Assembly: GCA_016186325.1 (NCBI GenBank)
Contig: JACPLW010000010.1
Span: 22,856 to 86,855 of the forward strand
From: Parcubacteria group bacterium
GTDB lineage: Bacteria > Patescibacteriota > Minisyncoccia > UBA10092
Direction of reading: 5' to 3'
DNA length: 64,000 bases
The position numbers and the translations under genes were made by a program. Below are positions 5,646 to 62,700 of the stretch, one piece after another (the stretch's first letter is position 1; the number at the start of each line of letters is the position of its first letter). Below the pieces are notes generated by a model. The model was given only the letters and a program-made list of their open reading frames with translations, was not told where the DNA came from and ran no database searches.

Positions 5646-6431
5646 TTAATTATCTGTTAGATTTCTAACGGGGTCAACTGTTATTTGTTGATAAGTTTTA
5701 TAGTGCTTGAGGCGATGGAAAAGATAGATAACTAAAGCCGCGGCACCGCCCAAGGTAATACCGGTTAAAAATACGCGCAAAAAATCATTCTCATTAGTTA
5801 TGAGAAAATTGTAAATGCCATGAAGAATTACAGCACTAAAGAGTCCAACAAGAATTAAGCGCGCGTCTTTTTTTACGAAATAATAGACAGCGAAAAAGTA
5901 TCCCGCAATCCCGGATGCCAAGCCGTGCAATGCTACGGCACTTATAAATCGTAAAGATACAAAATTAAGGGTTTCGCTTACGTAGCCGGGCGTGCCAAGC
6001 GGTATGTATGAAAAAATAGCAAAAACATTTTCTATTGCCGCAAAGCCTAAAGCGGCGGTAATGACGTAAATCATGCCATCAACCGGCTCGTCTAAAATCG
6101 GATTTTTGTTTAAAGCAAGATGAACCGCGCCGTATTTTGACGCCTCTTCTACTAGCGGCGCGATAAAAATCAAAAGCAGGATGCTTTCTATAGCAGGCAA
6201 CAACTCAAAGTAACCGAAAAATCTCGACAGAACCATTTCAAGAAAAATTACAAGCGGCGCCAAAGCGACGCCCATTAAAAATATTGTAAAAAGCCAATAT
6301 CGCGGCTCCGGGTGGTCGTCTTCCCTAAGATAAAAAAGTAGCCAAATCAAACTGGGAAGAACGGCTAGAATTATCGTTGGTATTAATGCGGACGGTTCTT
6401 GATTAAGCATTTTATTTCGGCCATTCTTCAA
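5646..6431 (-). CDS. PrsW-family intramembrane metalloprotease
   Basis: Multi-TM protein with the motifs EEASKY (EExxK), FAAIEN (FxxxE) and HGIYN (Hxxx[ND]). The true start may be the ATG near 6410, which would remove the overlap with valS. Confidence 0.55.
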   Translation of the reverse strand: MKNGRNKMLNQEPSALIPTIILAVLPSLIWLLFYLREDDHPEPRYWLFTIFLMGVALAPLVIFLEMVLSRFFGYFELLPAIESILLLIFIAPLVEEASKYGAVHLALNKNPILDEPVDGMIYVITAALGFAAIENVFAIFSYIPLGTPGYVSETLNFVSLRFISAVALHGLASGIAGYFFAVYYFVKKDARLILVGLFSAVILHGIYNFLITNENDFLRVFLTGITLGGAAALVIYLFHRLKHYKTYQQITVDPVRNLTDN

Positions 6432-8616
6432 TCATAATCGGTTTTCCCCGACGCTTTCGGTCGGGGCTCCGACCCCCGCTTTGCGGGGCGTCGGAGTTAT
6501 TCAATATTCCCCAAATTTCTTCGGTTAAAAAAGGAAGAAAGGGGTGGAGCAGTTTCAATAAATCTTCGTGGACTTTTATAAGGACTTCTTGAGTTTGCTG
6601 TCTTGCTTTTTCATCGGCAAGCTCCGACGCTTTGGTCGGAGCTCCGACTTCTTCAGAACGTCGGAGCTGTTTTTTTGCGGTTTCAATATAAATATCGGCG
6701 TATTCGTGCCAGAAAAAATCGTAAAGTTTATGAAGTGCCTGTCCAAACTCGTACTTTTCTATCCTGTTGCCGACTTCAACAATTGTTTTTTTGAGACCAC
6801 TTAAAATTTTCTTATCCGCTTCAGTTAAATTTTGATTTTTGCTTGCCCGCCGAAGCCTTGGCGTAGGCGGGATTTTTGAATTCACGTTTTGTTTTACAAA
6901 ACGCGTGGCGTTCCATATCTTATTACAGAATTTTTTGCCGGTTAACATCGCATCTTCATTAAACCGAATGTCCTGACTGCCGAGATTTTGGTACATCATA
7001 CCGAAGCGAGTAGCGTCAGCACCGTATTTTTCAATTAAATCAATCGGGTCAACACCGGTACCTCGAGATTTAGACATTATTTTACCTTCTTTATTAAGAA
7101 CCGTAGCGTGAATGTGTGTGGTGTTAAAAGGTGATTGGCCTGTAAATTCCAATCCTGAAAAAATCATTTTGGCAATCCAAATATCTCGAATATCTCTTGC
7201 TGAAGTAATAAAGTCGGTAGGATGGTATTTTTTAAGGTCGTTTGTTTTGTTGGGCCAGCCAAGTGTCGCAAAAGGCCAAAGCGCCGAAGAAAACCAAGTA
7301 TCCAAAACATCGGTTTCTCCCTCTAAAGGAATTTTGTGACCCCACCAAAGTTGGCGGGAAATATTCCAGTCCCTTTCATTTTTAAGGCGATTTAATAAAA
7401 CTTTCTCCCATTTTTGCGGGTGAATAATTGTTTTTTTCTTTTTTATTGCGTCAATTGCCAGTTTGGCAAGCTTTTCCATTTTCAAAAACCATTGCTCGGA
7501 CGGCAGAGGTTCAATGACCGAGTTACAGCGGTCGCAGCGGGCGATATTGTGCTCGTAATCTTCTATTTTTTCAATTAACCCGATGGCTTCAAGGTCTTTA
7601 ACTATTTGTTCGCGCGCTTCAGTCACTTTCATTCCCTTATAGCGCAAGCCGGCGTTCTCGTTCATTCGGCCGTGTTCATCAATTATAGTGATTGAAGGTA
7701 AGTTATGACGTTCCGCGATTTCAAAATCCGTTATATCGTGCGCCGGCGTAACCTTAATAATGCCGGTTCCAAATTCCGGGTCCACAGATTTATCTGCTAT
7801 TACCTTTATTTTAATTTTTTTGGTTTTAGCCGGCTGATTATTCGGCAAATCGTTGTCTATAGATTCTATCTCCAAATCTTTTCCCCAGTATTTTTTGTAA
7901 CGTTTGTCATTAGGGTGTACCGCTAAGGCAGTGTCGCCAAGTTTAGTTTCCGGTCTAGTCGTGGCGAGGGTGAGCGGTCCGTATTTGATAAAATAAAGTT
8001 TTGCGTGCTCCGGTATGTAGTCAACCTCTAGATCAGAGATTCCCGTGGCGCAGCGGACGCACCAATTAATAACGCGCTTGCCGCGATAAATCCAACCTTT
8101 TTTATAATAATGATTAAATGCTTCCACGACGGCTTTGGAGTAATCAGAATCCATAGTATATCTGGTTCGTGACCAGTCCGAGGATATGCCCAGCAATTTT
8201 AATTGGTCAAAAATAATATTGCCGTATTTTTCTTTCCACTCTTTAACTTTCTCAACAAATTTTTCCTGGCCTAGATCTTGGCGGCGCAAACCTTCTTTGC
8301 GAAGTTCTTTTTCAACAACATTTTGGGCAGAAATGCCGGCGTGGTCTATGCCCGGAAGCCAGAGCGTTTTAAAGCCCTTCATTCTTTTCATTCTCACCAA
8401 AATATCAACCTCGGTATTTTCCAAGACGTGGCCCATATGGAGCGAGCCGGTGATATTTGGCGGCGCCATCATCACCGAAAATTTCTTTTTTCTTTTTACG
8501 GCTTGCCCCGAAGAAGGCGGCGGCAGTTTATCAGGATTAAAAAAGCCCGATTCTTCCCAGAGCCGGTAAATTTTATCTTCAACTTCTTTTGGGTTATACG
8601 GAGAATCAAAGTTCAT
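6412..8616 (-). CDS. valS: Valyl-tRNA synthetase (class I). The C-terminal domain carries two in-frame palindromic-element insertions
   Basis: PPNITGSLHMGH (HIGH motif) and KIMSKS (KMSKS motif). Its coding sequence contains two family-B palindromic repeat copies (features at 6446-6496 and 6620-6667). Confidence 0.8.
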   Translation of the reverse strand: MNFDSPYNPKEVEDKIYRLWEESGFFNPDKLPPPSSGQAVKRKKKFSVMMAPPNITGSLHMGHVLENTEVDILVRMKRMKGFKTLWLPGIDHAGISAQNVVEKELRKEGLRRQDLGQEKFVEKVKEWKEKYGNIIFDQLKLLGISSDWSRTRYTMDSDYSKAVVEAFNHYYKKGWIYRGKRVINWCVRCATGISDLEVDYIPEHAKLYFIKYGPLTLATTRPETKLGDTALAVHPNDKRYKKYWGKDLEIESIDNDLPNNQPAKTKKIKIKVIADKSVDPEFGTGIIKVTPAHDITDFEIAERHNLPSITIIDEHGRMNENAGLRYKGMKVTEAREQIVKDLEAIGLIEKIEDYEHNIARCDRCNSVIEPLPSEQWFLKMEKLAKLAIDAIKKKKTIIHPQKWEKVLLNRLKNERDWNISRQLWWGHKIPLEGETDVLDTWFSSALWPFATLGWPNKTNDLKKYHPTDFITSARDIRDIWIAKMIFSGLEFTGQSPFNTTHIHATVLNKEGKIMSKSRGTGVDPIDLIEKYGADATRFGMMYQNLGSQDIRFNEDAMLTGKKFCNKIWNATRFVKQNVNSKIPPTPRLRRASKNQNLTEADKKILSGLKKTIVEVGNRIEKYEFGQALHKLYDFFWHEYADIYIETAKKQLRRSEEVGAPTKASELADEKARQQTQEVLIKVHEDLLKLLHPFLPFLTEEIWGILNNSDAPQSGGRSPDRKRRGKPIMIEEWPK
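6446..6496. repeat. Family-B palindromic element inserted in-frame within the valS 3' end
   Basis: ccccgacgctttcggtcggggctccgacccccgctttgcggggcgtcggag. It translates (minus strand) to ...APQSGGRSPDRKRRG.... Confidence 0.6.
6620..6667. repeat. Family-B palindromic element inserted in-frame within valS
   Basis: gctccgacgctttggtcggagctccgacttcttcagaacgtcggagc. It is nearly identical to the intergenic copy at 22435-22484 and translates to ...RRSEEVGAPTKASELAD.... Confidence 0.65.
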
Positions 8617-9788
8617 AGCCTAAGGTTAGCATCTGCGACTATTTTTTTCCATGAATCTTTTTGCGGTTTTTTCTTGAGATAATTAAAATAGCCGGCGGCG
8701 GCAATCATCGCGGCATTGTCGGTGGTGTAAGACAAATCGGGAACAAGCAACGGGATTTTATAGGATGCGATTTTTTTCGCCATTTCTTCGCGCAGTTTTC
8801 TATTGGCGGACACGCCGCCGGCAATCATTACTGATTTTGGATTGAAATTTTTCACCGCTTTAAGCGTTTTAGCGATTAAAACATCAACTATCGCATTCTG
8901 AACTTCAAAAGCCAAAGTCGGTCTGATTTTAGAAATCGGATATTTTTTTATCAAATCATTATACAGATACAAAACTGCGGTTTTAAGTCCTGAAAAAGAA
9001 AAGTTATGATTATCAGAATTTATCATCGGCCGAGGGAGTTTAATTTCGAATTTAGAATTTCGAATTTCGAATTTGTTTGTGATTTGTGATTTGTGATTTG
9101 TGATTTTTGATGCTTCGGTGGCGATAGCGGGACCGCCGGGGTATCCGAGGCCTAGAAGACGCGCCGTTTTATCAAAAGCCTCTCCGGCCGCGTCGTCAAG
9201 TGTTTGGCCTACAATTTTATATTGGCCGTAGTTTCTCATTAAAACCAGCTCAGTGTGCCCGCCGGAAACGATAAGAATTAACGCGGGAAATTCAATTTTT
9301 TTTGAGATTTGTCTCCCTTCGGTAGATCCCCCGTAGGGGGAAGATTTGTCTCCCTTCGGGAGATCCCCCGTAGGGGGAAGATTTGAGATTTTTCCAATTG
9401 GCGGCAGCCAATTGGAATAGATGTGTCCCTCGATATGATTGACGCCTATAATAGGTTTTTGCCACCTATAAGCTGGGGCCCTAGCGAAATTGACTCCGAT
9501 TAAAAGCGACGGCACTAGTCCCGGTCCCCGCGTTACCGCAATCAGGTCAACTTTCTCACTATTGATGTCGGACATCGATAATGCGGCGTTGATTGTGGGG
9601 CCGATTTTTTCAAGATGGGCACGACTAGCGAGATTGGGAACGACTCCCCCGAATTTCTTGTGAATCGCCACCTGGGAATAGGAAACATTTGATAAAACTG
9701 AAAAATAAGGGTTATCAAATCCTCCCTTTGCTTCTATAATCGCCGCGGCAGTGTCGTCGCATGAAGTTTCAATCCCTAGGATATGCAT
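8613..9788 (-). CDS. tsaD: tRNA N6-adenosine threonylcarbamoyltransferase TsaD (Kae1/Gcp family), with low-complexity repeat insertions
   Basis: N-terminal MHILGIETSCDDTAAAI, HIEGH and a C-terminal Gcp-like region. At 391 aa it is longer than typical because of tandem-repeat-encoded inserts. Confidence 0.75.
   Translation of the reverse strand: MHILGIETSCDDTAAAIIEAKGGFDNPYFSVLSNVSYSQVAIHKKFGGVVPNLASRAHLEKIGPTINAALSMSDINSEKVDLIAVTRGPGLVPSLLIGVNFARAPAYRWQKPIIGVNHIEGHIYSNWLPPIGKISNLPPTGDLPKGDKSSPYGGSTEGRQISKKIEFPALILIVSGGHTELVLMRNYGQYKIVGQTLDDAAGEAFDKTARLLGLGYPGGPAIATEASKITNHKSQITNKFEIRNSKFEIKLPRPMINSDNHNFSFSGLKTAVLYLYNDLIKKYPISKIRPTLAFEVQNAIVDVLIAKTLKAVKNFNPKSVMIAGGVSANRKLREEMAKKIASYKIPLLVPDLSYTTDNAAMIAAAGYFNYLKKKPQKDSWKKIVADANLRL
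9044..9112. repeat. Tandem heptanucleotide repeats (aatttcg/gaatttc x about 4, then tgatttg x 4) inside the tsaD coding region
   Basis: Read directly. They encode ...ITNHKSQITNHKSQITNKFEIRNSKFEIK.... Confidence 0.7.
9304..9377. repeat. Family-C element: two tandem 37-bp copies of gatttgtctcccttcgg(g/t)agatcccccgtagggggaa, each a double hairpin, in-frame in tsaD
   Basis: tctcccttcgggaga and tcccccgtaggggga hairpins, encoding ...GDKSSPYGGSTEGRQ.... A third copy lies in mltG at 49512-49548. Confidence 0.7.
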
Positions 9789-9795
9789 ACATTTG

Positions 9796-9870
9796 TAGCG
9801 CCAGCGGGATTTGAACCCGCGTACTCAGCTTGAAAAGCTGATGTCCTGGACCAGGCTAGACGATGGCGCC
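9796..9870 (-). tRNA. tRNA-Glu (anticodon TTC)
   Basis: Minus-strand GGCGCCATCGTCTAGCCTGGTCCAGGACATCAGCTTTTCAAGCTGAGTACGCGGGTTCAAATCCCGCTGGCGCTA. The anticodon loop is TTTTCAA. Confidence 0.75.
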
Positions 9871-9901: not shown

Positions 9902-9930
9902 TTGACAAATTGCTTTTTTAAAATTATTAT
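9902..9930 (+). promoter_or_regulatory. Near-consensus sigma70 promoter (TTGACA, 17-nt spacer, TATTAT) upstream of the mpa/arc gene
   Basis: ttgaca aattgcttttttaaaat tattat, read directly. Confidence 0.5.
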
Positions 9931-10019: not shown

Positions 10020-11873
10020 ATGCCTGAAGAACTTGACCGATCTGATGGGCCGATTAATGTGGAGCAACTCTTATTAGAGCTTCGCGATATTAACCTAAAA
10101 ATTCCCCATGTTAAGCCGACAGAAATTCAAGAGCAGCTTCGTGAGTCGGCGAAAAAATTGCGCGCGAAGTTAGAAGAGCTTTTTAAGAGAATTGAAAACG
10201 ATCATGAAAGGCGAGTTCATCTTACGCAGGCTTTAGAGAGGGCTTCGGCTGAAATTGAAAGACTTACGGCTCCGCCCCTTCCTTATGGTTATGTGGATCG
10301 CATTCACGATGATGGCACGATTGATGTTTTTATTAACAAGGATAATAGAAGGCGCGTTAATGTCTCTCCAGAAGTTAATGTTAAAGAATTGAAAACCGGT
10401 CAGCGGGCGCTCTTAAGTAATATAAACTACACCATTTTAGAAATTGATGAGGAATGGGAAAAGATTGGAGAAGAAGGCAAGGTCTCTGCTCTTCTAGGTG
10501 AAGACATAGTGAGAGTGGTCACTCATCTTGATGAAGTTCATGATGTAATCTTAGCCGCGCCTTTGAGAGAACAAAAAATTCGCGAAGGCGATTCCCTTCT
10601 CATTTTTGGAAATTTTGCTTTTGCTAAGTTACCCAAAGCAGAAACCGATGAGCTTCTGCTTGAAAAAGTGCCCGAAATTGGTTTCGCCCAAATCGGCGGC
10701 TTGAAAAATCAGGTTGAAATACTGCTTGAGGCCATTGAATATCCGGCGCTTTATCCGGAATTGTTCGCGCTTCATAAGCTCAAGCCGACTAAGGGCGTCT
10801 TGCTTTACGGGCCTCCCGGTTGCGGCAAAACACTTTTGGCCAAAGCCGTGGCTAACTTATTGGCGCAGAAGACGCGTAAGAAAATAGGCGATGCAAATAT
10901 CTGTGCTTATTTCATCAATATTAAAGGTCCGGAACTTCTTAATAAGTGGGTTGGCGAAACAGAGAGAAAAATCCGCGAAGTATTCCAGCGTGCCAGAGAA
11001 AAGGCGGTAGAAGGCTCCCCCGTTATTATCTTTTTTGACGAATTTGATTCTCTTTTCAGAACCCGCGGTTCGGGGATTTCTTCCGATATTGAGTCAACTG
11101 TCGTGCCACAGTTTTTATCCATGTTGGATGGCGCTGAGGAGCTTAATAATGTCATTGTTATAGGCGCCTCCAATAGGCAAGACCTAATTGATCCAGCGAT
11201 ACTGCGCCCCGGCCGTTTTGATATCAAGATTAAGGTTGACCGGCCTGATGAACTTGGCGCCAAAGAAATTCTTGGAATTTATGTTACTCCCGATTTGCCT
11301 TGGGGCGAAGATTCCGAAGGCAAGTCGTATGTTGGCCAGAAATTTCATTCGGTTGTTAACCGTTTGCATGGCAATAAACCATATAGCGTTGATTTAAGTA
11401 CGCCGGAACTAGTAGTTGAACACATGATCAAGGTTATTGTTGAATATTTGTATTATGTCGGTCCGCCGATTGCTTGGACTGACAGGCGCGGCAACCAGCA
11501 TGAATACAACACCGAATGCATTGAAATTACTTGGGCCGATGGAGAAAGGAAAATGTTATATGTTAAGGATATTTTGGTTTCCGGTGCCATGATTGAAAGC
11601 ATCGTAAATCGCGTTAAGAAAATAGCCATTAAACGCGCCGTCACTGGTAAAGGAGGCATTAAAATGGTTGATTTTTATACGGCCATAAGAGACGAAATCA
11701 AAGAAAGCAGTGACTTGCCGAATACCAATAATCCTGATGATTGGGCCAAGATCATCGGCCAGCGTTCGGAGAGCGGCCAGCGGATTGTTAATGTCCGCCC
11801 CATTATTGGGACACAGAGGGTGGCTAGTTCCCGGAGTACAGAACATGTTGTTACTACCGGCCAATATTTGTAA
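10020..11873 (+). CDS. mpa: Mpa/ARC-type AAA+ ATPase (proteasome-associated ATPase homolog) ending in the GQYL motif
   Basis: N-terminal coiled coil, Walker A GPPGCGKT, Walker B IIFFDEFD, and a C-terminal ...TTGQYL*. In actinobacterial Mpa the GQYL tail is the 20S proteasome docking motif. Confidence 0.75.
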   Translation: MPEELDRSDGPINVEQLLLELRDINLKIPHVKPTEIQEQLRESAKKLRAKLEELFKRIENDHERRVHLTQALERASAEIERLTAPPLPYGYVDRIHDDGTIDVFINKDNRRRVNVSPEVNVKELKTGQRALLSNINYTILEIDEEWEKIGEEGKVSALLGEDIVRVVTHLDEVHDVILAAPLREQKIREGDSLLIFGNFAFAKLPKAETDELLLEKVPEIGFAQIGGLKNQVEILLEAIEYPALYPELFALHKLKPTKGVLLYGPPGCGKTLLAKAVANLLAQKTRKKIGDANICAYFINIKGPELLNKWVGETERKIREVFQRAREKAVEGSPVIIFFDEFDSLFRTRGSGISSDIESTVVPQFLSMLDGAEELNNVIVIGASNRQDLIDPAILRPGRFDIKIKVDRPDELGAKEILGIYVTPDLPWGEDSEGKSYVGQKFHSVVNRLHGNKPYSVDLSTPELVVEHMIKVIVEYLYYVGPPIAWTDRRGNQHEYNTECIEITWADGERKMLYVKDILVSGAMIESIVNRVKKIAIKRAVTGKGGIKMVDFYTAIRDEIKESSDLPNTNNPDDWAKIIGQRSESGQRIVNVRPIIGTQRVASSRSTEHVVTTGQYL

Positions 11874-11883
11874 TAAAGTAAAC

Positions 11884-11912
11884 ATCCGCGCAAATTGCGC
11901 GGATATTTTATT
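11884..11912 (+). terminator. Rho-independent terminator after mpa
   Basis: atccgcgcaaattgcgcggat followed by attttattt. Confidence 0.55.
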
Positions 11913-11962
11913 TCTGATACCATGTTTTAAGTGATTTGTACTTTTAAAAGAGGAGAAATCAA

Positions 11963-13729
11963 ATGCAGGTCCTTGTTTCAGATATCGACTATTATGATGG
12001 CTACGGAGATTTTTCAGACCTTTTTTATCGATGTTTGCCCAGACGCCGTTTTAACCGGATACGCTATGAGCTTCCTATGGTTTTTGGAAGCGAAACAGAA
12101 TTTGGTTTGACATACAGCAGGGTACTCGATAAAGAAAAGGCAAAATTTTTTCCGGTAGATTCTCCGGAGACAGTTTTTCTCCATATTATTAAGAAAGTTG
12201 CCGAAAAAACAAAAGCCTTTGCGCGCGATCCGGCATCGCCATGGTTAAGAAACGGACTAAATCATTTTGATCGGATCAGCATTGGTAAAATAACCGAAGC
12301 GGCGATTTCAGACGATATTTCCTGTCTTCCCGTTAAGCTTAAAAAAGCAGTTGAAAGAACAGGACTATCGGCTAAAGATTTTTATTTGGGAGAAACAGGA
12401 ATATTTTTAGAAGAAGGCAGCCGTCTTTACATCGACGGTCCGCATTTAGAATCGTCTATCAGTGAATGCCGGGAACCGGGCGAAGTAGTTTGTCATGAAA
12501 AAGCAATGGAGAATATTATTACCGGAGTTTTACCTGAACTGGAAAATGAGATCGGTCGTGAAATTGTTATTCTTAAGGATAATACCGATAGGCACGGCAA
12601 CAGTTATGGCTGTCATACAAACTATCTGCTTATGCTGGAATTTTTCAATCGGCTTTACGTAAAAAACGAATGGAGCGATGCTTGGTTAAGTTTTATTACC
12701 TCCGGCATAATTGTTACCGGCAGCGGTAAGGTCGGCTATGAATGCTATAGCGAGCCGTGCGACTACCAAATTTCTCAAAGAGCCGATCATTTTATGAGAA
12801 TTTTAGGCAGCGGTACGATGTATTTTCGTCCGCTTATCAACTTTAGAGACGAACCGTTGGCCGACAGAGCGAAATACGGCCGTTTTCATGTAATTTTAGA
12901 TGATTCCAATATGGCCGAATGGTCCATTTATCTTAAAATTGGCACTAAAGCGCTGGTTTTAAATATGCTTCAGCATCAATTTTTCGAAGGTGGAAAAACT
13001 ATCAAGTATAAAGAGCTTTTTATAGATAATCCGATTGAATCTCTAAAATTCATTTCCAGGGATTTGACGTGTAAGAAGAAAGTCCTGTTAGCGGACGGCA
13101 GTGAAAAATCAGCTCTTGAAATTCAAGAGGAATGGCTAAGTATTGTTGAAGATTTTTATTCAGGTTCTGATTCTTATCCTTTTTGGATTTCGGATGTTAT
13201 AGCAAAATGGAAATTAACTCTACGGTGGATTAGAGATGATGATGACAATCTTGATTCGGTTTTGGACTGGCGGATTAAACTTTCCCTCATCAAAGGTATA
13301 AAAGAAAAATATGCCAAAAGAGGAATAACTCTTGATTGGCGAGATGGTCGGATTAAAGATTTAGACTGCCTTTACCATAGTTTGGGTCCCAAAGGTCTTT
13401 ACAATTGCGCTTTAAAAGCGGGTCACATTGAAAGAATTGTAACAGATGAACAAATTGAAATAGCTAAAACTGAGCCACCCGAAAACACCAGAGCATGGCT
13501 GCGCGGCCGGTTTATAAGGCACTTTTTGCCACATCTTGTCGATGCCAGCTGGGAGCTCCTGTCTTTTTATATTAAAATCGGTGATTTTGAAACATTGGTG
13601 TCGCTTAAGATGGACCCGCTCTGCAGTACGCGCCATAAGGTGGGCGAGTTGTTTACAGAAACAGACAGTTATGAAAGTTTTTGCAAGAGGTTTCTTTCCA
13701 TGTATTTAAGTGGTAGGAGTCTTTTTTAA
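11963..13729 (+). CDS. Pup ligase/deamidase family protein (PafA/Dop homolog 1; longer form, possibly Dop-like)
   Basis: FGSETEFG (the GIETEYG-like N-terminal motif), GNSYGCHTNYLL, SQRADHF, RPLINFRDEPLADRAKYGRFHVILDDSNMAEWSIYLKIGTKALVL, LYHSLGPKG and PPENTRAWLRGRFI all match conserved PafA/Dop blocks. Strong SD aggag upstream. Confidence 0.75.
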   Translation: MQVLVSDIDYYDGYGDFSDLFYRCLPRRRFNRIRYELPMVFGSETEFGLTYSRVLDKEKAKFFPVDSPETVFLHIIKKVAEKTKAFARDPASPWLRNGLNHFDRISIGKITEAAISDDISCLPVKLKKAVERTGLSAKDFYLGETGIFLEEGSRLYIDGPHLESSISECREPGEVVCHEKAMENIITGVLPELENEIGREIVILKDNTDRHGNSYGCHTNYLLMLEFFNRLYVKNEWSDAWLSFITSGIIVTGSGKVGYECYSEPCDYQISQRADHFMRILGSGTMYFRPLINFRDEPLADRAKYGRFHVILDDSNMAEWSIYLKIGTKALVLNMLQHQFFEGGKTIKYKELFIDNPIESLKFISRDLTCKKKVLLADGSEKSALEIQEEWLSIVEDFYSGSDSYPFWISDVIAKWKLTLRWIRDDDDNLDSVLDWRIKLSLIKGIKEKYAKRGITLDWRDGRIKDLDCLYHSLGPKGLYNCALKAGHIERIVTDEQIEIAKTEPPENTRAWLRGRFIRHFLPHLVDASWELLSFYIKIGDFETLVSLKMDPLCSTRHKVGELFTETDSYESFCKRFLSMYLSGRSLF

Positions 13730-13735
13730 AGTTTT

Positions 13736-13761
13736 AAACCCCTTCGTTTCGAAGGGGTTTT
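13736..13761 (+). terminator. Rho-independent terminator
   Basis: aaaccccttcgtttcgaaggggtttt. Confidence 0.6.
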
Positions 13762-13863
13762 ACGTATAAAAACCAGGATATGGCAATTTTCTTAAAGCTA
13801 CGTTAAGATATAAAAAGTCATTTTTATTCTTTAACAACTTATTAAGATAGGAATGAGAGTGCT

Positions 13864-15360
13864 ATGAGAGATCGAGTCATGGGAGGCGAAATCGAATGGC
13901 TTGGTAACTTTAGGCCCAATCCTAACTGCCGATGGCAGGAAGCCGGGAACCTGTTTGAATCAATTAAAGCATTTCTTTGCAAAAAATATAGTATTAACAA
14001 TTCTGGAGAGTTATTTCTTCCAAACGGCTCTCGTTTTTACCATGAGTCAACGGGTAATCATATTGAGACCACGACCCCCGAATGTGGAAGCGCAAGAGAT
14101 GTCTTAAAATACGAAAAATGGCAAGAGCGCTTTATGTGCCGACTTTCAAAAGAACTGAAGGACAGTCTGGGAGAATTCGTGTTTCAAAAAAAGAACAGCA
14201 GTGATAATTTAGCCGATACCCGCGGCTCTCATGAGAGTTATTTGTCCGATAAAATGTTTAGTGATTTACTGAGTTCTGCTCAAGCAAGATTATATTCTAT
14301 GCCCCCCACTATGGACCCGCGGCTTAATTATCTTATTCTGTTTTTAATAACACGTCAGATTTTTACCGGTAGCGGCGGCGGCATTTTAAGCTGCCAAGAC
14401 AACAGTCGCAACGATTATGTAATTTCTCCTAGGGCTTATTTCATTGAGACGATTTTTAGCTCTTCATCAACCAGCTCGCGGCCGATTATTCACATTCGCA
14501 AAGAAGCGTTAGCCGATGACTCCAAATATTGGCGCAATCATTTTATTTTAGGCGATGCTAATATGGCCGACCTTTCAATCTTTCTTAAATTCGGAACGAC
14601 AAGCGCCGTTTTGGAGATGATCGAGGAAGGTTTTTACGATAAGACATTGAATATGTTTGATCCTCGTGAAGCTGCCAATCTATTTAAAAAAATCTCCGGC
14701 GATTTAACCCTGCGAAACGTGCCAATTCGTTTGGTGGGTGGCGGAGATGAAGGTGTTATAGGAATCCAAAAACGATTCTGCCAAGATTTCAAAAGATACC
14801 TCGGCTATTCCGGTCAAGGCGGAGAAAAATTAGAAATTGCGCAAAGATGGTGGGAGATTTTGGAATGCCTGCAAGGGGACGATGAAAAAGTTTATCGGGA
14901 GTTAGATTACAAGATTAAGTTTAGGCTTTTAAATGACTATATGACGGCAAGGGGTCTTTCTCTTTCTGATAACAAGGTTAGGATGCTCGATCTTGACTAC
15001 CACAGTTCGGATCCGAAAAAAAGCTTTTATTACTTGTTAAAGAATCGTCCGAGTTCTAAATTTGAAAGTTTGGTGAGTGAAAGTAAAATTTTGGAAAGAG
15101 GGGGCCTACCTCCAAATACCAGGGCTAAGTTAAGAGCTCAAATTCAATTGCTTCTTGAAGAATTAGACATGTCTTATAGTTTAAATTGGGATTTGGTGTC
15201 GTTCAAACCCATTGGTTCAGATGTACCTGAAAGAAAATTACACTTACCAGAACCGCGCGTTTCATCATTTGACGGTCTAAATTTTGAAAAAAACTATGAT
15301 GCCATAGATTATCTAAACTCTTTAAAGCCCGGCGCTATTAAAATTCGTAAAGCCCCCTAG
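13864..15360 (+). CDS. Pup ligase/deamidase family protein (PafA/Dop homolog 2; divergent)
   Basis: MGGEIEW, RPIIHIRKEALADDSKYWRNHFILGDANMADLSIFLKFGTTSAVLEMIEEG, LDLDYHSSDP and PPNTRAKLRAQ. Same family as the preceding gene, but the GNSYGCHENY block is replaced by RGSHESYL. Confidence 0.7.
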   Translation: MRDRVMGGEIEWLGNFRPNPNCRWQEAGNLFESIKAFLCKKYSINNSGELFLPNGSRFYHESTGNHIETTTPECGSARDVLKYEKWQERFMCRLSKELKDSLGEFVFQKKNSSDNLADTRGSHESYLSDKMFSDLLSSAQARLYSMPPTMDPRLNYLILFLITRQIFTGSGGGILSCQDNSRNDYVISPRAYFIETIFSSSSTSSRPIIHIRKEALADDSKYWRNHFILGDANMADLSIFLKFGTTSAVLEMIEEGFYDKTLNMFDPREAANLFKKISGDLTLRNVPIRLVGGGDEGVIGIQKRFCQDFKRYLGYSGQGGEKLEIAQRWWEILECLQGDDEKVYRELDYKIKFRLLNDYMTARGLSLSDNKVRMLDLDYHSSDPKKSFYYLLKNRPSSKFESLVSESKILERGGLPPNTRAKLRAQIQLLLEELDMSYSLNWDLVSFKPIGSDVPERKLHLPEPRVSSFDGLNFEKNYDAIDYLNSLKPGAIKIRKAP

Positions 15361-15436
15361 GGCTTTTATTTTTTAAACTTCCAGCCTTCATGTTTAGCGG
15401 TTTTTGTGATATAAAGAACGCATCATATAGAGGATT

Positions 15437-16993
15437 ATGGGTAAACATTATTTAAATATCGGACAGGCTTCTGAAATAACCGATTCAAAAGATCGGCGTT
15501 TTTACCGTTTTTTGGAAATTCTTCCCGGCCTACTTTCTTGGAGCACTATTTTTTTAGTCATTTTTCTTTCTTGGGCCGAGCCTTTTCTTGTCGCCATTTT
15601 CATAATTTTTTTTGACGTTTATTGGCTTTTAAAGACAATTTTCCTTTCTCTTCACATGAGAGTCGCTTTTAACAAGATGAAAGAAAACTTAAAGAGAAAT
15701 TGGCAAAATGAATTGGAAACCGTTCCGGTAGGTTCCGAGGTTCTATCGGGAACGAGTTGGCGCAATATTTATCACCTTGTGATTTTGCCGATGTATAAAG
15801 AACCGCTGGAAGTAGTGCGCGCCAGTTTTTTAAGCTTGGCAAAAATTAATTATCCGCTTAGCAAAGTTATTGTTGTTTTGGCGATTGAAGAGCGCGGCGG
15901 CGAACCGGCTTTAACGGTAGCGCGTGAAATTGAAAAAGAATTTGGAGGCGCGTTTTTTAAATTTTTGGTATCCGTTCATCCTAAAGATATTACCGGCGAA
16001 GTTGCGGGAAAAGGGTCTAACGATTTCTGGGCTATTAGGGCGGTTAAAAATAAAATTATTGACACACTTAACATTTCTTACGAAAGAATTATTGTTTCTG
16101 TTTTTGACGCCGACACTATCACTCATCCCGAATTTTTTGGCCGCCTTGCTTATGCGTATTTGTCTTGTAAAAAGCCGCTTCGCTCCTCGTTTCAGCCGAT
16201 TCCGCTTTTTATAAACAATATTTGGCAGGCGCCGGCTTTCTCAAGAATTTTTGCTTTTTCAACGACTTTTTGGCAGATGATTCAGCAATCACGGCCGGAA
16301 CGGCTTATAACTTTTTCTTCCCAGTCAATAGGTTTTAAGCCTCTTAGCGAGATCGGTTTTTGGCAAACCAACGTGGTGAGCGAGGACTCAAGAATTTTCT
16401 GGCAATGTTTGTTAAATTTTGACGGCGATTGGCAAACGGTGCCGTTGTTTTTTCCGGTTTATATGGATGCCAATATCGGAAATACTTTTTGGCAAACCAT
16501 AAAAAACCAATATAAACAAATTCAACGCTGGGCTTACGGCGTTGAAAATAAACCCTATTTTCTATTTGGTTTTTCTAAAAATAAAAAAATTGAAAGAAAG
16601 AAAAAATGGCTTCTTAGTTTTATCATGGTTGAAAGCGCCCATTCTCTTGCTACCAATTCTTTGATTATTTTCATGCTCGGATGGCTGCCGACGGTAATTG
16701 GAGGCGGTCGTTTTTCACAAACGCTTCTTTCTTATAATCTTCCTTATATCACTCGCCTTATAATGACTTTAGCAATGGTCGGTTTAGTTTTTACTGCCAT
16801 TATAGCCACAAATCTTCTTCCGCCAAAACCGCCGCATTACGGTCGGTTCAAGTGGTTTTTGATGATTGCCCAATGGTTTCTTTTTCCGATAAACATGATT
16901 GTTTTCGGTTCCATACCCGCTCTTGACGCCCAAACGCGATTAATGTTTGGAAAATATTTAGGTTTCTGGAGCACGCCAAAATCGATAAACTAG
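15437..16993 (+). CDS. Membrane glycosyltransferase family 2, processive (cellulose/chitin-synthase-like)
   Basis: Multi-TM protein with FDADT (DxD), SEDSR (ED) and QIQRW (QxxRW) motifs. Confidence 0.6.
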   Translation: MGKHYLNIGQASEITDSKDRRFYRFLEILPGLLSWSTIFLVIFLSWAEPFLVAIFIIFFDVYWLLKTIFLSLHMRVAFNKMKENLKRNWQNELETVPVGSEVLSGTSWRNIYHLVILPMYKEPLEVVRASFLSLAKINYPLSKVIVVLAIEERGGEPALTVAREIEKEFGGAFFKFLVSVHPKDITGEVAGKGSNDFWAIRAVKNKIIDTLNISYERIIVSVFDADTITHPEFFGRLAYAYLSCKKPLRSSFQPIPLFINNIWQAPAFSRIFAFSTTFWQMIQQSRPERLITFSSQSIGFKPLSEIGFWQTNVVSEDSRIFWQCLLNFDGDWQTVPLFFPVYMDANIGNTFWQTIKNQYKQIQRWAYGVENKPYFLFGFSKNKKIERKKKWLLSFIMVESAHSLATNSLIIFMLGWLPTVIGGGRFSQTLLSYNLPYITRLIMTLAMVGLVFTAIIATNLLPPKPPHYGRFKWFLMIAQWFLFPINMIVFGSIPALDAQTRLMFGKYLGFWSTPKSIN

Positions 16994-24326: not shown

Positions 24327-24896
24327 ATGATCTTAAAAGGGAAATCATTGACTAGGGAAATATTATTTGTGGTTGCCGTTAGTCCAATTTTGCTTTCTGC
24401 CCTATTTGCTCCCAACGCAGTTCAGCTTTTAAAGCCGTTGATTAAATGGCGTAAAAATTGGGATAAGATTGATTATAAACGAATCCATGAAGCAGTACGG
24501 AGACTAAACAATAAAAGATTAGTAAGATTAACGGAAAAAGGCGATAAGTTATTTATAGAAATTACCGACAGCGGTAAACGATTAGTTAAAAACTTTGATT
24601 ATGATAATTTAGAACTGCCCAAACTAAAAGAATGGGACAAAAAATGGCGGTTGGTGGTCTTTGACATTCCCAATAAAAAGAAAAAAGAAAGGCGCGCTTT
24701 TTCCAGAAAATTAAAAGATATTGGTTTTTATCCTCTGCAGGAAAGCGTATTTATTTATCCTTATGATTGCCGCGATGAAATGGATTTTATTTGCGAATTT
24801 TTATCAATCGGCCGTTATATAAATTATTGTATTGTTGAATCTTTAGATAAAAGAGAAGGAGATCTGCGCCGAATCTTTGATTTAGAGCTTTCTTAA
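24327..24896 (+). CDS. PaaX-family regulator-like protein (Cas2/VapD-fold C-terminal domain)
   Basis: WDKKWRLVVFDIPNKKKKERRAFSRKLKDIGFYPLQESVFIYP matches the PaaX C-terminal domain consensus (WxxxWxLVxFDIPE...R...L...GFG.L..SV). Confidence 0.5.
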   Translation: MILKGKSLTREILFVVAVSPILLSALFAPNAVQLLKPLIKWRKNWDKIDYKRIHEAVRRLNNKRLVRLTEKGDKLFIEITDSGKRLVKNFDYDNLELPKLKEWDKKWRLVVFDIPNKKKKERRAFSRKLKDIGFYPLQESVFIYPYDCRDEMDFICEFLSIGRYINYCIVESLDKREGDLRRIFDLELS

Positions 24897-28768: not shown

Positions 28769-29005
28769 ATGTACGAAACAATAAAAAAATTTTTAGAAGA
28801 AGGAGGGAAATGTCTTTTGATTGAAGACGGAAAGCCGATTGGCGTTGTTTTGACGATGGAAGAATACGAAAAACTTCAACCTTCGCCGAAAAAAGATGAG
28901 GTTGCGGCCTCGACCGAAACGGCGGTGAATATGGATGAACTTGATTTTGCGTCGCCCGATGATATTACGCTTGAAGATTTAGGGTTAGATGAAATATCGG
29001 AATAA
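28769..29005 (+). CDS. Phd/YefM-like antitoxin-domain protein with an acidic tail
   Basis: GKPIGVVLTMEEYEKL resembles the Phd/YefM N-terminal motif. Confidence 0.4.
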   Translation: MYETIKKFLEEGGKCLLIEDGKPIGVVLTMEEYEKLQPSPKKDEVAASTETAVNMDELDFASPDDITLEDLGLDEISE

Positions 29006-32162: not shown

Positions 32163-32780
32163 ATGGCGGGATTAAAAAATTTTATGAAGTTTATATTAGG
32201 AAAAAAAATCGGGATGACTCAAGTTTATAAGGGAAACAACATTGTCCCCGTAACTTTAATAGAAAGCGGGTCTAATTTTGTTACTCAAGTCAGGACAAGA
32301 GATAAAGATGGTTATTCAGCTGTTCAATTGGGTTTTGGTGGAGCAAAAAAAACCAATAAACCAAGATTAGGCCATCTTAAAAATCTTCCCCAGTTAAAAC
32401 ATTTGAAAGAATTTAGAGTTGATTCCACCGAACTTAAAACAGGTGATGAAATAGATGTCTCTAATTTAAATGCCGGAGAGAAAGTAACGGTAGTAGCAAT
32501 TTCAAAAGGCAAGGGATTTCAGGGTGTTGTTAAAAGGCATGGATTTCATGGCGGGCCAAAAAGCCACGGTCAAAAAGACCGCCATCGCGCTCCCGGCTCT
32601 ATTGGCGCATCGTGGCCCCAGCATGTCATAAAGGGAATGAGAATGGCGGGCCGGACGGGCGGCGATAAAATAACCGTTAAAAATGTGGAAATTGTTGAAA
32701 TTGATAAAGAAAATAATATTATTGCTCTTAAGGGGGCGGTGCCGGGAAGGCGGGGGACTTTAGTTATGATAAAAAGTTAA
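32163..32780 (+). CDS. rplC: 50S ribosomal protein L3
   Basis: KKIGMTQVY...GFQGVVKRHGFHGG. Confidence 0.9.
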   Translation: MAGLKNFMKFILGKKIGMTQVYKGNNIVPVTLIESGSNFVTQVRTRDKDGYSAVQLGFGGAKKTNKPRLGHLKNLPQLKHLKEFRVDSTELKTGDEIDVSNLNAGEKVTVVAISKGKGFQGVVKRHGFHGGPKSHGQKDRHRAPGSIGASWPQHVIKGMRMAGRTGGDKITVKNVEIVEIDKENNIIALKGAVPGRRGTLVMIKS

Positions 32781-32897: not shown

Positions 32898-33569
32898 CTA
32901 GTAGCTGGGAGGTGTGGCGATCCACCGATCGAAACAGACGGTGCCGGTGGATCGCTGTTCGCACACCTGGGCTACGTAGCCCATACTTGGTGTCGAGCGG
33001 TGGTAGCCGCCGTAACTGTAGCCGCCACCGTTTCCGCTCAACGAGATGTTGAAGTTGAGCTGGGAGAGACTGATGGCTCGCTTGGGAGCCGGCGCCGGCG
33101 CGAAGGGTGCCTGGATCTCTTCCGGCCTGGGGGCCGGCGGAGAAAACATCGGCGGCAGGGTTGCCGCCGGCGCCGCAGGCCGCGGCGCGCAGAAGTAGTC
33201 GTCGGCCTTTGAGCACATCGTTGCCGGCGGCTGAACCGGCGTCGGGACGACCGCGGAAGGAGCCGGCGCACAGCAGCAGCACGTCGCTGCCGTGGTAGGC
33301 GCAGGTGCCGTGGGGACGACTGCCGGCGCCGGCGCAGCTGGCGCAGGCGCTGTCGGCGACACCTTCTTCGGAGCGGCGGCGGGCACCTTCTTCGCGGCCG
33401 GCTTGGCCGCGGGCTGAACCGCCTTCGAAGGCGGCGGCAGAACCACTCGCACGGCCTCGTGCCGCACGATGGCCGGGCCGTAGCCCGACAAGTTGAGCGC
33501 GATTAGAAGGCCGAGCGCGCCGAGCGCCATGAACAGAAAGTTCAGAACCCATCGCTTTGTCATCGTCAT
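32898..33569 (-). CDS. GC-rich foreign gene: Pro/Ala-rich secreted or membrane-anchored protein, inserted antisense between rplC and rplD
   Basis: N-terminal TM/signal MTMTKRWVLNFLFMALGALGLLIALN, then PAAKPAAKKVPAAAPKKVSPTAPAPAAP repeats. Its base composition is strikingly GC-rich against the AT-rich flanks. Own SD ggaggg and a minus-strand terminator at 32825-32865. The likely start is the second ATG at about 33563. Confidence 0.5.
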   Translation of the reverse strand: MTMTKRWVLNFLFMALGALGLLIALNLSGYGPAIVRHEAVRVVLPPPSKAVQPAAKPAAKKVPAAAPKKVSPTAPAPAAPAPAVVPTAPAPTTAATCCCCAPAPSAVVPTPVQPPATMCSKADDYFCAPRPAAPAATLPPMFSPPAPRPEEIQAPFAPAPAPKRAISLSQLNFNISLSGNGGGYSYGGYHRSTPSMGYVAQVCEQRSTGTVCFDRWIATPPSY

Positions 33570-33712
33570 CCCTCCTTAGGGATTTCGGATGTTACGGTTT
33601 AGAACGTTTTTTATTGACCACTTCGACTCAGCTCAGGGTCAATCCTGAGCTTGTTGAACGGATTGACAAACAACTTACTTTTGTACTAACATTGTATCAT
33701 ATTTTTTAAGTT

Positions 33713-34348
33713 ATGTCAAGGGTTAAAGTCTATAATCAAGAAGGAAAAGAAATAGCCGAAATAAAGCTTAATGAAGCCATTTTTGGGTTGCATTGGAACG
33801 CCGACTTGGTTCACCAAGCGGTAAGAGTTGCAATGGCTAATAAAAGGCAGGTTGTGGCCTCAACTAAGGATAGGAGCGAAGTTAGGGGCGGCGGACGCAA
33901 GCCATGGAGGCAAAAAGGCACCGGTCGGGCTCGTCACGGTTCAACTCGTTCCCCTTTATGGAAGGGCGGTGGCATTACTTTCGGACCGACAATCGAAAGA
34001 AACTTCAAATTAAAAATTAACAAGAAAATGGCGCGTAAAGCGTTTTTAACAGCCCTTTCGGCCAAAGCAAGAGACAATGAGATTTTGATTTTTGATGATT
34101 TGAAAATTCTATCGTTAAAGACGAAAGAAATGGCAAAGATTATGGCTAATTTCCCGCAAATAAAAAAAGGACTTTTGGTCTTATTTGAGAAAAACGATAT
34201 GCTTAAAAATGCCAGCCGCAATTTATTAAAACTTGAAGTCGTTAATATAGATAATCTTAATATTTTTAATGTTTTAAAGCATCGGCATCTTATTTTTACA
34301 AAGCCCGCCATTGAGTATTTAAATAAAAAATATGACGCTCCTAAATAA
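33713..34348 (+). CDS. rplD: 50S ribosomal protein L4
   Basis: Position in the operon and the L4-like sequence. Confidence 0.85.
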   Translation: MSRVKVYNQEGKEIAEIKLNEAIFGLHWNADLVHQAVRVAMANKRQVVASTKDRSEVRGGGRKPWRQKGTGRARHGSTRSPLWKGGGITFGPTIERNFKLKINKKMARKAFLTALSAKARDNEILIFDDLKILSLKTKEMAKIMANFPQIKKGLLVLFEKNDMLKNASRNLLKLEVVNIDNLNIFNVLKHRHLIFTKPAIEYLNKKYDAPK

Positions 34349-58697: not shown

Positions 58698-60628
<1,931 letters not shown>

Positions 60629-62001: not shown

Positions 62002-62700
62002 TTAGCTCTCCACTAAAAGATGTTCCATATCTTTTCTTTCGAGCATTATCTTTAAGGCATCTTCCGCGAAATCTTTATATTCCGCGATGGTTTTAAATTG
62101 TGAAATGATAATTTCTTTACCGCAAAGTTCTCTTCCATTTTTATCTTTTTTCTTCTTCATATACTCCTCCCAACTCGACTTGGAGACGCCGTCACCAAGT
62201 CGATGGACACGATTATTAAGATTCACATATGCGCTTACGTTCAGAAGATATTCGTTGGAGTCAACATGAACTGCTTTAAATGGACCTTGGAATAAAGAAC
62301 CGGAACGCTGACATTTTACATTGAAATATCTAGCATACCCAAGACATAATCTATGCATAAATTTTTCTATTCCTTTATCGGCGATTTGTCTCATTAAGAA
62401 GTGGTAATGATTTGGATTGAGGCAATAGCATACAAATTCCACTAACTTGGTGACGCCGTCACCAAGTTGAGATTCGCGCTTCCTAAATGAATTTTCAAAT
62501 ATACTTCCTATCGGTTCAACGGTATTGAACTCCTCCATACTTTGCAAGAATCTGGCATAATCTCGTGCGTCCATGAAAATTTGGCGTTTATCCACGCCTC
62601 GGCCGAAAATATGATAATACTCATCATTTACTAGTAATACTTTTCTCATACATCTTATTATACCACTTGGTGACGCCGTCACCAAGTATTTTTTCACCAT
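62002..62700 (-). CDS. REP-associated tyrosine transposase (RAYT; IS200-like Y1 HuH transposase) that carries three copies of its REP palindrome in-frame
   Basis: HuH motif NPNHYHFLM and a catalytic-Tyr region YVNLNNRVH (YxxxNP-like). The segments KYLVTASPSG, QLGDGVTKLV and RLGDGVSKSS are encoded by the palindrome copies. Confidence 0.6.
   Translation of the reverse strand: MVKKYLVTASPSGIIRCMRKVLLVNDEYYHIFGRGVDKRQIFMDARDYARFLQSMEEFNTVEPIGSIFENSFRKRESQLGDGVTKLVEFVCYCLNPNHYHFLMRQIADKGIEKFMHRLCLGYARYFNVKCQRSGSLFQGPFKAVHVDSNEYLLNVSAYVNLNNRVHRLGDGVSKSSWEEYMKKKKDKNGRELCGKEIIISQFKTIAEYKDFAEDALKIMLERKDMEHLLVES

Follow-up and report, generated by a model that had tools for sequence, protein, structure and literature searches.

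Deletion of pup Beside Retained Mpa/ARC ATPase and Pup-Ligase-Family Genes in a Parcubacteria Group Bacterium

The locus described here is very probably a CPR variant of the known Pup system which has lost its modifier gene, pup, by deletion and has retained the enzymes. It lies in a stretch of 64 kb (hereafter the window, i.e., the whole of the DNA analysed) and comprises three genes, confirmed at their coordinates (Table 1) with the list of open reading frames and profile searches: an Mpa/ARC ATPase gene and two Pup-ligase-family paralogs, lig1 and lig2. The assignment of these families in an earlier inspection of the letters (the sequence-only reading), i.e., an ATPase and two PafA/Dop-family paralogs, is borne out by the profile scores. 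The same is true of further descriptive claims: each of the three genes is followed by a terminator-like hairpin, a tRNA-Glu gene is found upstream, and the downstream neighbour, claimed to be a glycosyltransferase gene, gives weak GT2-like matches and bears the NCBI product label “glycosyltransferase family 2”. The CPR origin of the DNA agrees with the NCBI protein names (“Parcubacteria group bacterium”) and with the closest relatives, which belong to Candidatus Azambacteria.

Table 1. Features of the locus and its flanks (positions in the window).
Feature	Position	Strand	Details
tRNA-Glu	9795-9870	-	
Promoter-like site	9902-9930	+	TTGACA-17-TATTAT, 11/12 matches, upstream of Mpa/ARC gene; consensus match only
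Mpa/ARC AAA+ unfoldase gene	10020-11873	+	617 aa; TIGR03689, PF17758, PF16450, PF00004
Terminator-like hairpin 3' of Mpa gene	11884-11904	+	9-bp stem, 6 GC pairs, T tail
lig1, Pup-ligase-family paralog	11963-13729	+	588 aa; PF03136
Terminator-like hairpin 3' of lig1	13740-13757	+	
lig2, Pup-ligase-family paralog	13864-15360	+	498 aa; PF03136
Deletion junction at expected pup site	15338-15348	+	DNA alignments and endpoints
Terminator hairpin, homologous to post-pup hairpin of relatives	15349-15366	+	DNA alignments
GT2-like polytopic membrane protein gene	15437-16993	+	518 aa; weak PF13632/PF13641 matches

The key evidence comes from syntenic relatives. A canonical pup is situated directly 3' of lig2 in 11/11 distinct relatives (the L005 group, L011, the L006 group, L015, L008, L012, L019, L020, L021, L022, and L023), a census drawn from a metagenome scan and contig look-ups; the scan of species-representative genomes, a set without the window's own genome, returned one locus. 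The Pups encoded there are 60–69 aa long, match PF05639, and end in YVQ[R/K]GG[E/Q]. In the relatives, mpa/arc is followed by lig1, lig2, and pup, in some cases by one or two additional ligase paralogs, and then by the GT2-like gene. The number of ligase-family paralogs per locus ranges from one to four. Wherever a relative's contig reaches far enough, the GT2-like gene lies downstream of the pup locus; since the whole region is syntenic, a functional link between the two is not inferable from this arrangement.

In DNA alignment with the closest relative, L023, the window lacks 273 bp (the deletion was also mapped against L005). The missing segment takes in the final codons of the ancestral lig2, the spacer, the complete pup ORF of 207 bp, and 30 bp belonging to the 3' spacer. 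The deletion is clean and microhomology-flanked, and it has joined the 3' end of lig2 to the terminator of pup: the last six codons of lig2 are new sequence made by the deletion, and its stop codon (15358-15360) falls inside the terminator hairpin. Hence, pup was deleted from its site by one event of ~273 bp. Mis-assembly as the cause of the loss is exceedingly improbable, the same junction being shared by the NCBI MAG and four independent, separately assembled Logan runs at 99.99–100% identity. The assemblies of this population differ by at most one base, and lig2 and the gene after it carry consecutive NCBI numbers.

The sequence-only reading had proposed a lineage-specific tagging system whose non-Pup modifier and downstream partner are unknown. 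Such a system seems highly improbable. A window without Pup and paralogs orthologous to neither PafA nor Dop (see below) would fit it, but the same paralog clades are paired with canonical Pup at the deleted site in all relatives, the scar of the deletion is visible, and the locus harbors no conserved alternative small ORF. Because the relatives carry canonical pup at the very site that was deleted, the modifier is not an unknown new one; an attractive reading is thus corrected from a new modifier to a deleted pup.

The claim that the 64 kb contain no Pup-like gene, on the other hand, stands. A tblastn search of the window that used four CPR Pups as queries found none; when a profile built from 11 CPR Pups was run against all six frames, the best score was 6 bits (E=2.3), compared with 73–95 bits for the positive controls; and in a search of 90 intergenic small ORFs with PF05639/TIGR03687 the spiked-in control was the only match. 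A screen of the ORFs by C terminus (Gly-Gly-Gln/Glu, or Q/E) yielded nothing resembling Pup, and ~3.5 kb beyond the window edge, on a contig of 114 kb, were free of Pup as well. Two candidates were rejected: a single small protein is acidic (28769-29005, 78 aa, ending in DEISE) but has no Pfam match, and a tblastn match to the L005 Pup (15508-15612, minus strand, E=0.007) is Lys-rich low-complexity sequence within the GT2-like gene, scoring 3.8 bits with the profile. The arrangement of pup beside a ligase gene, used to recognize such loci (PMC2588565), is thus absent from the window and present in 11/11 relatives.

The Mpa/ARC ATPase conforms to its family in score, domains, and tail. It scores 539.1 bits with TIGR03689 (“proteasome ATPase”), above the equivalog cutoff of 504.75, and combines an N-terminal coiled coil, tandem OB domains, and a single AAA module (PF17758, PF16450, PF00004); its NCBI entry, MBI2635499.1, is likewise named “proteasome ATPase”. 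The alignment with M. tuberculosis Mpa structures (449 bits) covers residues 51-463 and 494-609 of the latter and runs through the terminal GQYL; the ascription of a coiled coil and an Mpa-type tail proved correct. The docking motif, present here as ...TTGQYL, is kept as G[Q/H]YL or QYL in seven relatives. The reported lack of 20S genes in the 64 kb is confirmed by a domain scan of 20 unassigned ORFs, which revealed no PF00227 or other proteasome domain; no prcBA or other proteasome genes occur within 10 kb of the locus in any relative. The tail is conserved although no proteasome gene is nearby, either in the window or in the relatives.

Both paralogs possess the expected carboxylate-amine ligase fold, their AF2 models matching PafA/Dop structures at TM 0.77–0.90. 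The six metal-coordinating residues of Dop, in A. cellulolyticus numbering E8, E10, Y92, E99, H155, and H241 (PMC8599861), are all found in lig1 and lig2; at the position of the catalytic Asp, lig2 has Glu. At the same time, the scores fall below the equivalog cutoffs: 277.3 bits for lig1 and 214.9 for lig2 with the PafA model TIGR03686 (cutoff 551.3), and 286.4 and 206.8 bits with the Dop model TIGR03688 (cutoff 492.3). In an NJ bootstrap tree, each paralog forms a clade of its own with 100% support, outside both the PafA clade (100%) and the Dop clade (95%). The phylogeny separates the paralogs from the known enzymes, and its deep nodes, poorly supported (37–47%), do not place either as PafA or as Dop. 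Both carry a mixture of PafA-like and Dop-like residues at the signature positions of Hecht et al. (PMC7947786). Orthology to PafA or Dop was thus rejected or left ambiguous by the tree, the equivalog scores, the signature positions, and the fold search; as judged from sequence, neither paralog is orthologous to PafA or Dop.

Still, the two copies differ in character. The first, lig1 (PF03136, 355.6 bits against a cutoff of 25; model pLDDT 85), is closer to Dop than to PafA in phmmer (221.6 vs. 172.9 bits), and the top six structural matches of its model are all Dop (TM 0.83–0.90, vs. 0.77 for PafA). It bears a mostly helical insertion of ~95 residues (about residues 55-150), with a low-confidence segment that holds a conserved PWxRxxLNH motif. 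The insertion sits at the position of the Dop-loop, a conserved element, 40–65 residues long, that precedes strand beta-2 and includes a conserved Trp (PMC8599861); the insertion is longer than the Dop-loop, and although the position matches, sequence homology to the latter is not demonstrable. lig1 keeps Asp at the catalytic position (Dop D94, C. glutamicum PafA D64), and the HEN of its GNSYGCHENY block is changed to HTN. By sequence and model, lig1 leans toward Dop and is the more derived copy; its architecture suggests that it is likely depupylase/deamidase-like.

The second paralog, lig2 (PF03136, 271.9 bits against a cutoff of 25; pLDDT 93), resembles PafA and Dop structures to the same degree; its N-terminal spacing is PafA-like, without a Dop-loop, and the E-x-E, H-E, TRQ, RPxxxxRxE, and GDANM motifs are kept. 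The catalytic Asp is replaced by Glu in the window, L005, L008, L020, and L012 and is retained in L006 and L015; hence, most lig2 members carry the substitution, with the carboxylate preserved. In the pup-bearing relative L008, which has only Mpa, lig2, and a Pup ending in GGE, lig2 is the sole ligase. Together with its architecture, this makes lig2 a likely Pup ligase. The sequence-only reading had supposed that one copy had lost the GNSYGCHENY block and had become a depupylase or a regulatory paralog. Neither supposition was supported: the block of the divergent copy, lig2, reads ADTRGSHESY, with the metal-binding His and Glu kept, and it is lig1, carrying the HEN to HTN change, that leans toward Dop, while lig2 has canonical motifs and serves as the only ligase of L008. 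The direction of the two roles is read from the lig1 insertion, the bias of its scores, and the gene content of L008.

On these grounds, a sequence of events can be proposed for the relatives. Using ATP, lig2 would activate Pup at its C-terminal Glu and ligate it to substrate lysines, and lig1 would remove Pup or deamidate Pup-GGQ. The coiled coil of Mpa/ARC would capture Pup, and the tagged protein would be unfolded, either in a proteasome-free manner like that of Corynebacterium or together with an unlinked partner binding the G[Q/H]YL tail. As for the organism from which the window comes, the module may now be idle after a recent loss, or pup may be supplied from elsewhere in the genome.

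The remaining genes bear the marks of continued selection. Relative to L023, Mpa has a dN/dS of 0.147, lig1 of 0.193, and lig2 of 0.165; the values of neighbouring housekeeping genes are 0.07–0.14. Unique amino acid changes on the window and L023 branches number 84 vs. 74 in the Pup genes and 173 vs. 85 in the housekeeping genes; for lig1 (26 vs. 14) and lig2 (30 vs. 18), the excess on the window branch is slight and non-significant. The unique substitutions of the window are mostly conservative, none of them affects the listed metal ligands, and the Mpa coiled coil shows no extra divergence. The three enzyme genes are thus intact and under purifying selection, without lineage-specific acceleration. 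Therefore, the deletion is recent, or pup is located elsewhere in the genome. Enzymes in such condition are not predicted by a long-standing loss of the tag, a point counted against the explanation preferred here.

That the deletion is recent and pup unreplaced, leaving Mpa, lig1, and lig2 as an idle remnant too young for damage, has not far short of an even chance of being right. Since pup adjoins a ligase gene in 11/11 relatives and “invariably” did so in earlier surveys (PMC2588565), a relocated pup would be unusual; the absence of Pup from the 64 kb and ~3.5 kb past the edge and the small, non-significant surplus of changes in lig1 and lig2 point the same way. What sits poorly with idleness is the branch-level dN/dS, still ~0.2, and the lack of acceleration specific to the Pup genes, so that the deletion would have to fall in about the final tenth of the branch that began when L023 diverged. 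We consider it only slightly less likely that pup, lost here, is encoded elsewhere and that the system is ordinary, working, and split. Intact ORFs, preserved metal ligands, low dN/dS, and unaccelerated rates would all follow, and the region examined (64 kb and ~3.5 kb of the 114 kb contig) is part of the genome; against this, an unlinked pup is without precedent among the relatives, and the window searches gave no candidate. In the protein-database search for a relocated pup, the Pups of L023, L022, L021, L006, and L012 were themselves absent among the 120 matches listed.

A Pup-independent role of the enzymes, e.g., general unfolding by Mpa/ARC and action of the ligase paralogs on another carboxylate substrate, is unlikely. 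Purifying selection that continues without pup is consistent with it, as are the up to four divergent paralogs of the relatives, suggesting functional diversification; yet all relatives retain pup, and we know of no Pup-independent activity for this ligase family. Also doubtful, if somewhat less so, is a broader proposal in which Parcubacteria/Azambacteria would carry a distinct, deep-branching, proteasome-independent Pup branch with up to four specialized ligase clades other than PafA and Dop (lig1, lig2, lig3/4), and the enzymes of the window, selected without pup, would have a target other than the locus-encoded Pup or a Pup-independent role with the G[Q/H]YL-tailed unfoldase.

CPR lineages are absent from the Pup survey PMC7947786; the NCBI pipeline already annotates Pup in Patescibacteria MAGs. 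Three points documented here were not encountered in the literature searched: CPR bacteria of very small genome size retain a Pup system without a linked proteasome, their loci contain one to four ligase-family paralogs in clades apart from PafA/Dop, and the Mpa docking tail is conserved without a nearby proteasome gene. The pup-less population is a natural knockout and could reveal any function that Mpa and the ligase paralogs have without the tag.

Compared with the actinobacterial Pup-proteasome system (in M. tuberculosis mpa, dop, pup, prcB, prcA, and pafA), the window has the same Mpa/ARC equivalog with its coiled coil, OB domains, and GQYL, and its two PF03136 enzymes share metal ligands and fold with the actinobacterial ones; the PF05639 Pup of the relatives ends in GGE/GGQ. 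It differs in lacking prcBA, as do the 10-kb surroundings in the relatives, in the order mpa, lig1, lig2, pup, in paralogs forming their own clades below the equivalog cutoffs, and in the deletion of pup.

Our finding also differs from UBact, whose loci usually include proteasome subunits. Lehmann et al. 2017 reportedly described such Pup-like tagging genes in candidate phyla, including Parcubacteria-type genomes. The modifier of the relatives is probably not of the UBact type, because it fits the Pup models PF05639 and TIGR03687 and ends in YVQRGGE. For the small ORFs of the window, the 25 of 45 NCBIfam families listed included no UBact model.

Outside Actinobacteria, Pup loci without proteasome linkage are known from Plesiocystis and Rhodopirellula, where a membrane-protein gene accompanies them (Iyer et al. 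2008, PMC2588565). The CPR loci resemble them in combining Pup and a ligase with an adjoining membrane-protein gene. However, the ligases of the former have inserted transmembrane segments, which lig1 and lig2 do not, and the membrane protein here is a separate GT2-like gene, the linkage of which may reflect conserved synteny alone.

Proteasome-free pupylation is established in Corynebacterium glutamicum, which has ARC, Pup, PafA, and Dop and whose ARC disassembles pupylated ferritin (PMC8223512, PMC12288473). Unlike the window and the CPR paralogs, Corynebacterium retains pup together with true PafA and Dop orthologs. Like it, the CPR relatives have the unfoldase and ligase-family enzymes without linked 20S genes, and C. 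glutamicum would provide the best functional analogy for them.

The locus under study represents a CPR form of the Pup system, from which a small deletion has removed the pup gene. The observation of the three-gene module itself is sound: the ORFs are present exactly as the sequence-only reading had described them, and profile searches agree with its assignment of an Mpa/ARC-type ATPase and two members of the PafA/Dop family (Pup-ligase paralogs, hereafter lig1 and lig2). The ATPase scored 539.1 bits (cutoff 504.75) with TIGR03689, the NCBI equivalog model of the Pup-system ATPase, and the strong PF03136 matches of lig1 and lig2 amounted to 355.6 and 271.9 bits, respectively. The alignment with Mpa of M. 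tuberculosis spans the coiled coil through the final GQYL. A terminator-like hairpin stands behind each of the three genes, as was claimed, and a near-consensus promoter-like site lies upstream of the Mpa gene. In the NCBI annotation of this Parcubacteria-group MAG, the genes appear as a "proteasome ATPase" and two "PafA2 family" proteins (MBI2635499-501); the next gene after lig2 is a family-2 glycosyltransferase (MBI2635502). Since these identifiers are numbered consecutively, there is no NCBI gene call between lig2 and the glycosyltransferase.

Features of the window and related loci (window coordinates unless another locus is named)
Feature	Position	Size	Remarks
ValRS	6412-8616		
TsaD	8613-9788	391 aa	
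Mpa/ARC ATPase	10020-11873	617 aa	TIGR03689; two proteasomal-ATPase OB domains, AAA module
lig1	11963-13729		PF03136 Pup-ligase
lig2	13864-15360		PF03136 Pup-ligase
GT2-like protein	15437-16993	518 aa	polytopic membrane protein
PaaX_M/Cas2-like domain protein	24327-24896		
rplC	32163-32780		
GC island	32900-33600	~650 bp	62-75% GC (genome 41%)
Longest coherent ORF in GC island	32898-33569, minus strand	223 aa	hydrophobic N-terminus, then Pro/Ala-rich low-complexity sequence
rplD	33713-34348		
gyrB, both ORFs	58698-60628		overlap at ATGA
gyrB, first piece	58698-58997	99 aa	N-terminal GHKL; gyrB models E=2e-45
gyrB, second piece	58997-60628	543 aa	
IS200-like Y1 transposase	62002-62700, minus strand		
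Segment missing from the window	L023 9637-9909	273 bp	
Third/fourth ligase paralogs	L006 11866-13344; L012 11918-14903; L022 6726-8204; L021 3177-3926		
Phage-like genes upstream of Mpa	L008/L009 1-6000		serine recombinase, terminase large subunit, two N6/N4 methylases

The absence of pup and 20S genes from the 64 kb, also claimed earlier, was confirmed by several searches. No credible match to four CPR Pups was found in the window with tblastn, and among all 2,495 six-frame window segments the best score with a profile of 11 CPR Pups was 6 bits (E=2.3); on related loci, the positive control, this profile reached 73-95 bits. When curated Pup models were run against 91 sequences (90 of them small ORFs from window intergenic regions), the spiked-in control was the sole match. 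Likewise, the 20 unassigned window ORFs scanned contained no proteasome-family domains. Of the organism's own genome, the analysis covered the 64 kb window and roughly 3.5 kb more of the contig, which is 114 kb long.

Relatives of the locus, gathered via contigs encoding lig2 or GT2-like homologs and supplemented by a single scan each of genomes and metagenomes, amounted to 11 distinct loci sharing the order PrsW, ValRS, TsaD, Mpa, lig1, lig2, GT2-like membrane protein, RecG. Directly 3' of lig2, all 11 carry a gene of 60-69 aa matching PF05639, whose product ends in ...LxDEIDDxL/IxExxExFxxxYVQ[R/K]GG[E/Q]; given this match and ending, the small protein is a canonical Pup, in its GGQ form in L012 and L022. 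Hence, the comparison lends no support to the proposed lineage-specific orphan system whose modifier would be unknown: the modifier gene is retained throughout the relatives and deleted in the window. Additional ligase paralogs follow pup in some loci (one in L006, L015, L021, and L022; two in L012), forming a 100%-supported clade of their own with altered motifs, e.g., NE, SE, or TE for GD before ANM. In one relative, L008, lig1 is missing and phage-like genes take the place of the region upstream of Mpa, pointing to a prophage insertion or rearrangement as the event that eliminated both lig1 and the upstream synteny.

The deletion can be delineated by alignment with L005 and with the closest relative, L023 (GCA_030650355.1, Candidatus Azambacteria), to which the window is 84-85% identical at the amino-acid level in Mpa, lig1, and lig2 and 94% identical in the flanking genes. 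In the window, ...GGCGCTAT-TAAAATT runs directly into CGTAAAGCCCCCTAGGGCTTTTATTTTTT, the terminator located 3' of pup in the relatives. The lost segment comprises the final lig2 codons, the spacer, the entire pup, and 30 bp downstream, and both of its edges are flanked by short A/T-rich repeats (AGTAA...AATT); the lig2 stop codon now resides within the loop of the former pup-terminator hairpin. An assembly error is excluded, since the identical junction was recovered in four separately assembled sequencing runs. The loss is specific to the window's lineage, because L021, which branches outside the group of the window, L005, and L023, possesses pup.

The enzyme genes left behind are not decaying. 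In the comparison of the window with L023, they show a dN/dS of 0.147 (Mpa), 0.193 (lig1), and 0.165 (lig2) at dS of 0.4-0.6, against 0.07-0.14 in the flanking housekeeping genes. With L005 as the outgroup, unique amino-acid changes in the window and L023 numbered 28/42 in Mpa, 26/14 in lig1, and 30/18 in lig2 (84/74 in total), and 173/85 in the housekeeping genes; a separate test against L005 agrees with the L023-based one. Where sites are otherwise invariant, the substitutions unique to the window are for the most part conservative and affect none of the listed metal ligands, and the coiled coil with which Mpa binds Pup has not diverged further than in pup-bearing lineages. Therefore, either the deletion is recent, confined to about the final tenth of the branch, or these enzyme genes are still in use, most simply via a pup elsewhere in the genome. 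Among the neighboring genes, ValRS stands out by its unusual divergence on the branch leading to the window (97 vs. 29 unique changes relative to L023, chi-square 36.7; dS 1.06 vs. 0.3-0.8 in adjacent genes), which may reflect gene replacement or recombination.

Other peculiarities of the window include a GC island between rplC and rplD, whose longest coherent ORF has no match in Pfam or Rfam, and a gyrB seemingly divided into two ORFs, for which a frameshift, a genuinely split gene, or an error in sequencing could account. TsaD exceeds its orthologs of 350-357 aa by ~35-40 aa owing to an insert in which a LPPTGDLPKGDKS-like motif recurs, and a homolog of the PaaX_M/Cas2-like protein adjoins the pup locus in L022.

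As to the two ligase paralogs, a neighbor-joining tree (200 bootstraps) resolved five clades at 95-100% support (CPR lig1, CPR lig2, CPR lig3/4, actinobacterial PafA, and actinobacterial Dop), but the nodes connecting them reached only 37-47%. Both proteins fall far short of the equivalog cutoffs for PafA and Dop and are orthologs of neither. Both preserve the six residues given as metal ligands of Dop (PMC8599861), and their confident structural models display the PafA/Dop fold. The sequence-only reading was inaccurate in treating the GNSYGCHENY block as lost from one copy: in lig2, this block reads ADTRGSHESY, with His and Glu retained; E-x-E, H-E, TRQ, RP....R.E, and GDANM are also preserved, the spacing from strand 1 to the NG-R-Y motif is PafA-like, and the catalytic-Asp position, within FYHE, holds Glu (Asp in two relatives). 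In lig1, the catalytic Asp is retained, HEN is changed to HTN, the Arg of TRQ is lost, and DD replaces GD. An insertion of ~95 residues at the Dop-loop position of lig1 consists largely of helices and includes a flexible segment bearing the clade-conserved motif PWxRxxLNH. The sequence of lig1 scores higher with Dop than with PafA (221.6 vs. 172.9 bits), and the top six structural matches of its model are all Dop. L008 has no system genes other than those for Mpa, lig2, and a Pup with C-terminal Glu, a set workable only with lig2 as the ligase. Taken together, the architecture of the paralogs, the Dop-leaning scores of lig1, and the gene content of L008 argue, with no more than moderate confidence, for lig2 as the ligase and lig1 as a depupylase/deamidase-like enzyme, opposite to the earlier suggestion that the block-altered copy is a deamidase/depupylase or regulatory paralog.

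Overall, the CPR form of the Pup system is of interest as divergent, multi-paralog, and unlinked to the proteasome while its Mpa docking tail is conserved, and so is the natural pup-less population from which the window derives, with enzymes still seemingly under selection. The C-termini of all CPR Mpa homologs examined read G[Q/H]YL or QYL; the tail Gln is dispensable for function (PMC12288473). Iyer et al. (PMC2588565) described non-actinobacterial Pup loci with membrane-protein genes, not proteasome genes, as their linked partners, and every CPR relative whose contig reaches far enough likewise has a GT2-like membrane protein downstream of its pup locus. No other gene of the neighborhood is as well conserved (94% identity between the window and L023). 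As synteny extends over the entire region, the linkage does not count as evidence for a shared function. One group of Actinobacteria, C. glutamicum among them, possesses ARC, Pup, PafA, and Dop but lacks 20S subunits, and its ARC disassembles pupylated ferritin (PMC8223512, PMC12288473). The CPR loci similarly combine ARC with ligase-family enzymes, with no proteasome gene within 10 kb in any of the 11 relatives. Since actinobacterial pupylation without 20S exists, such a proteasome-free mode is the closest known analogy for the CPR locus.
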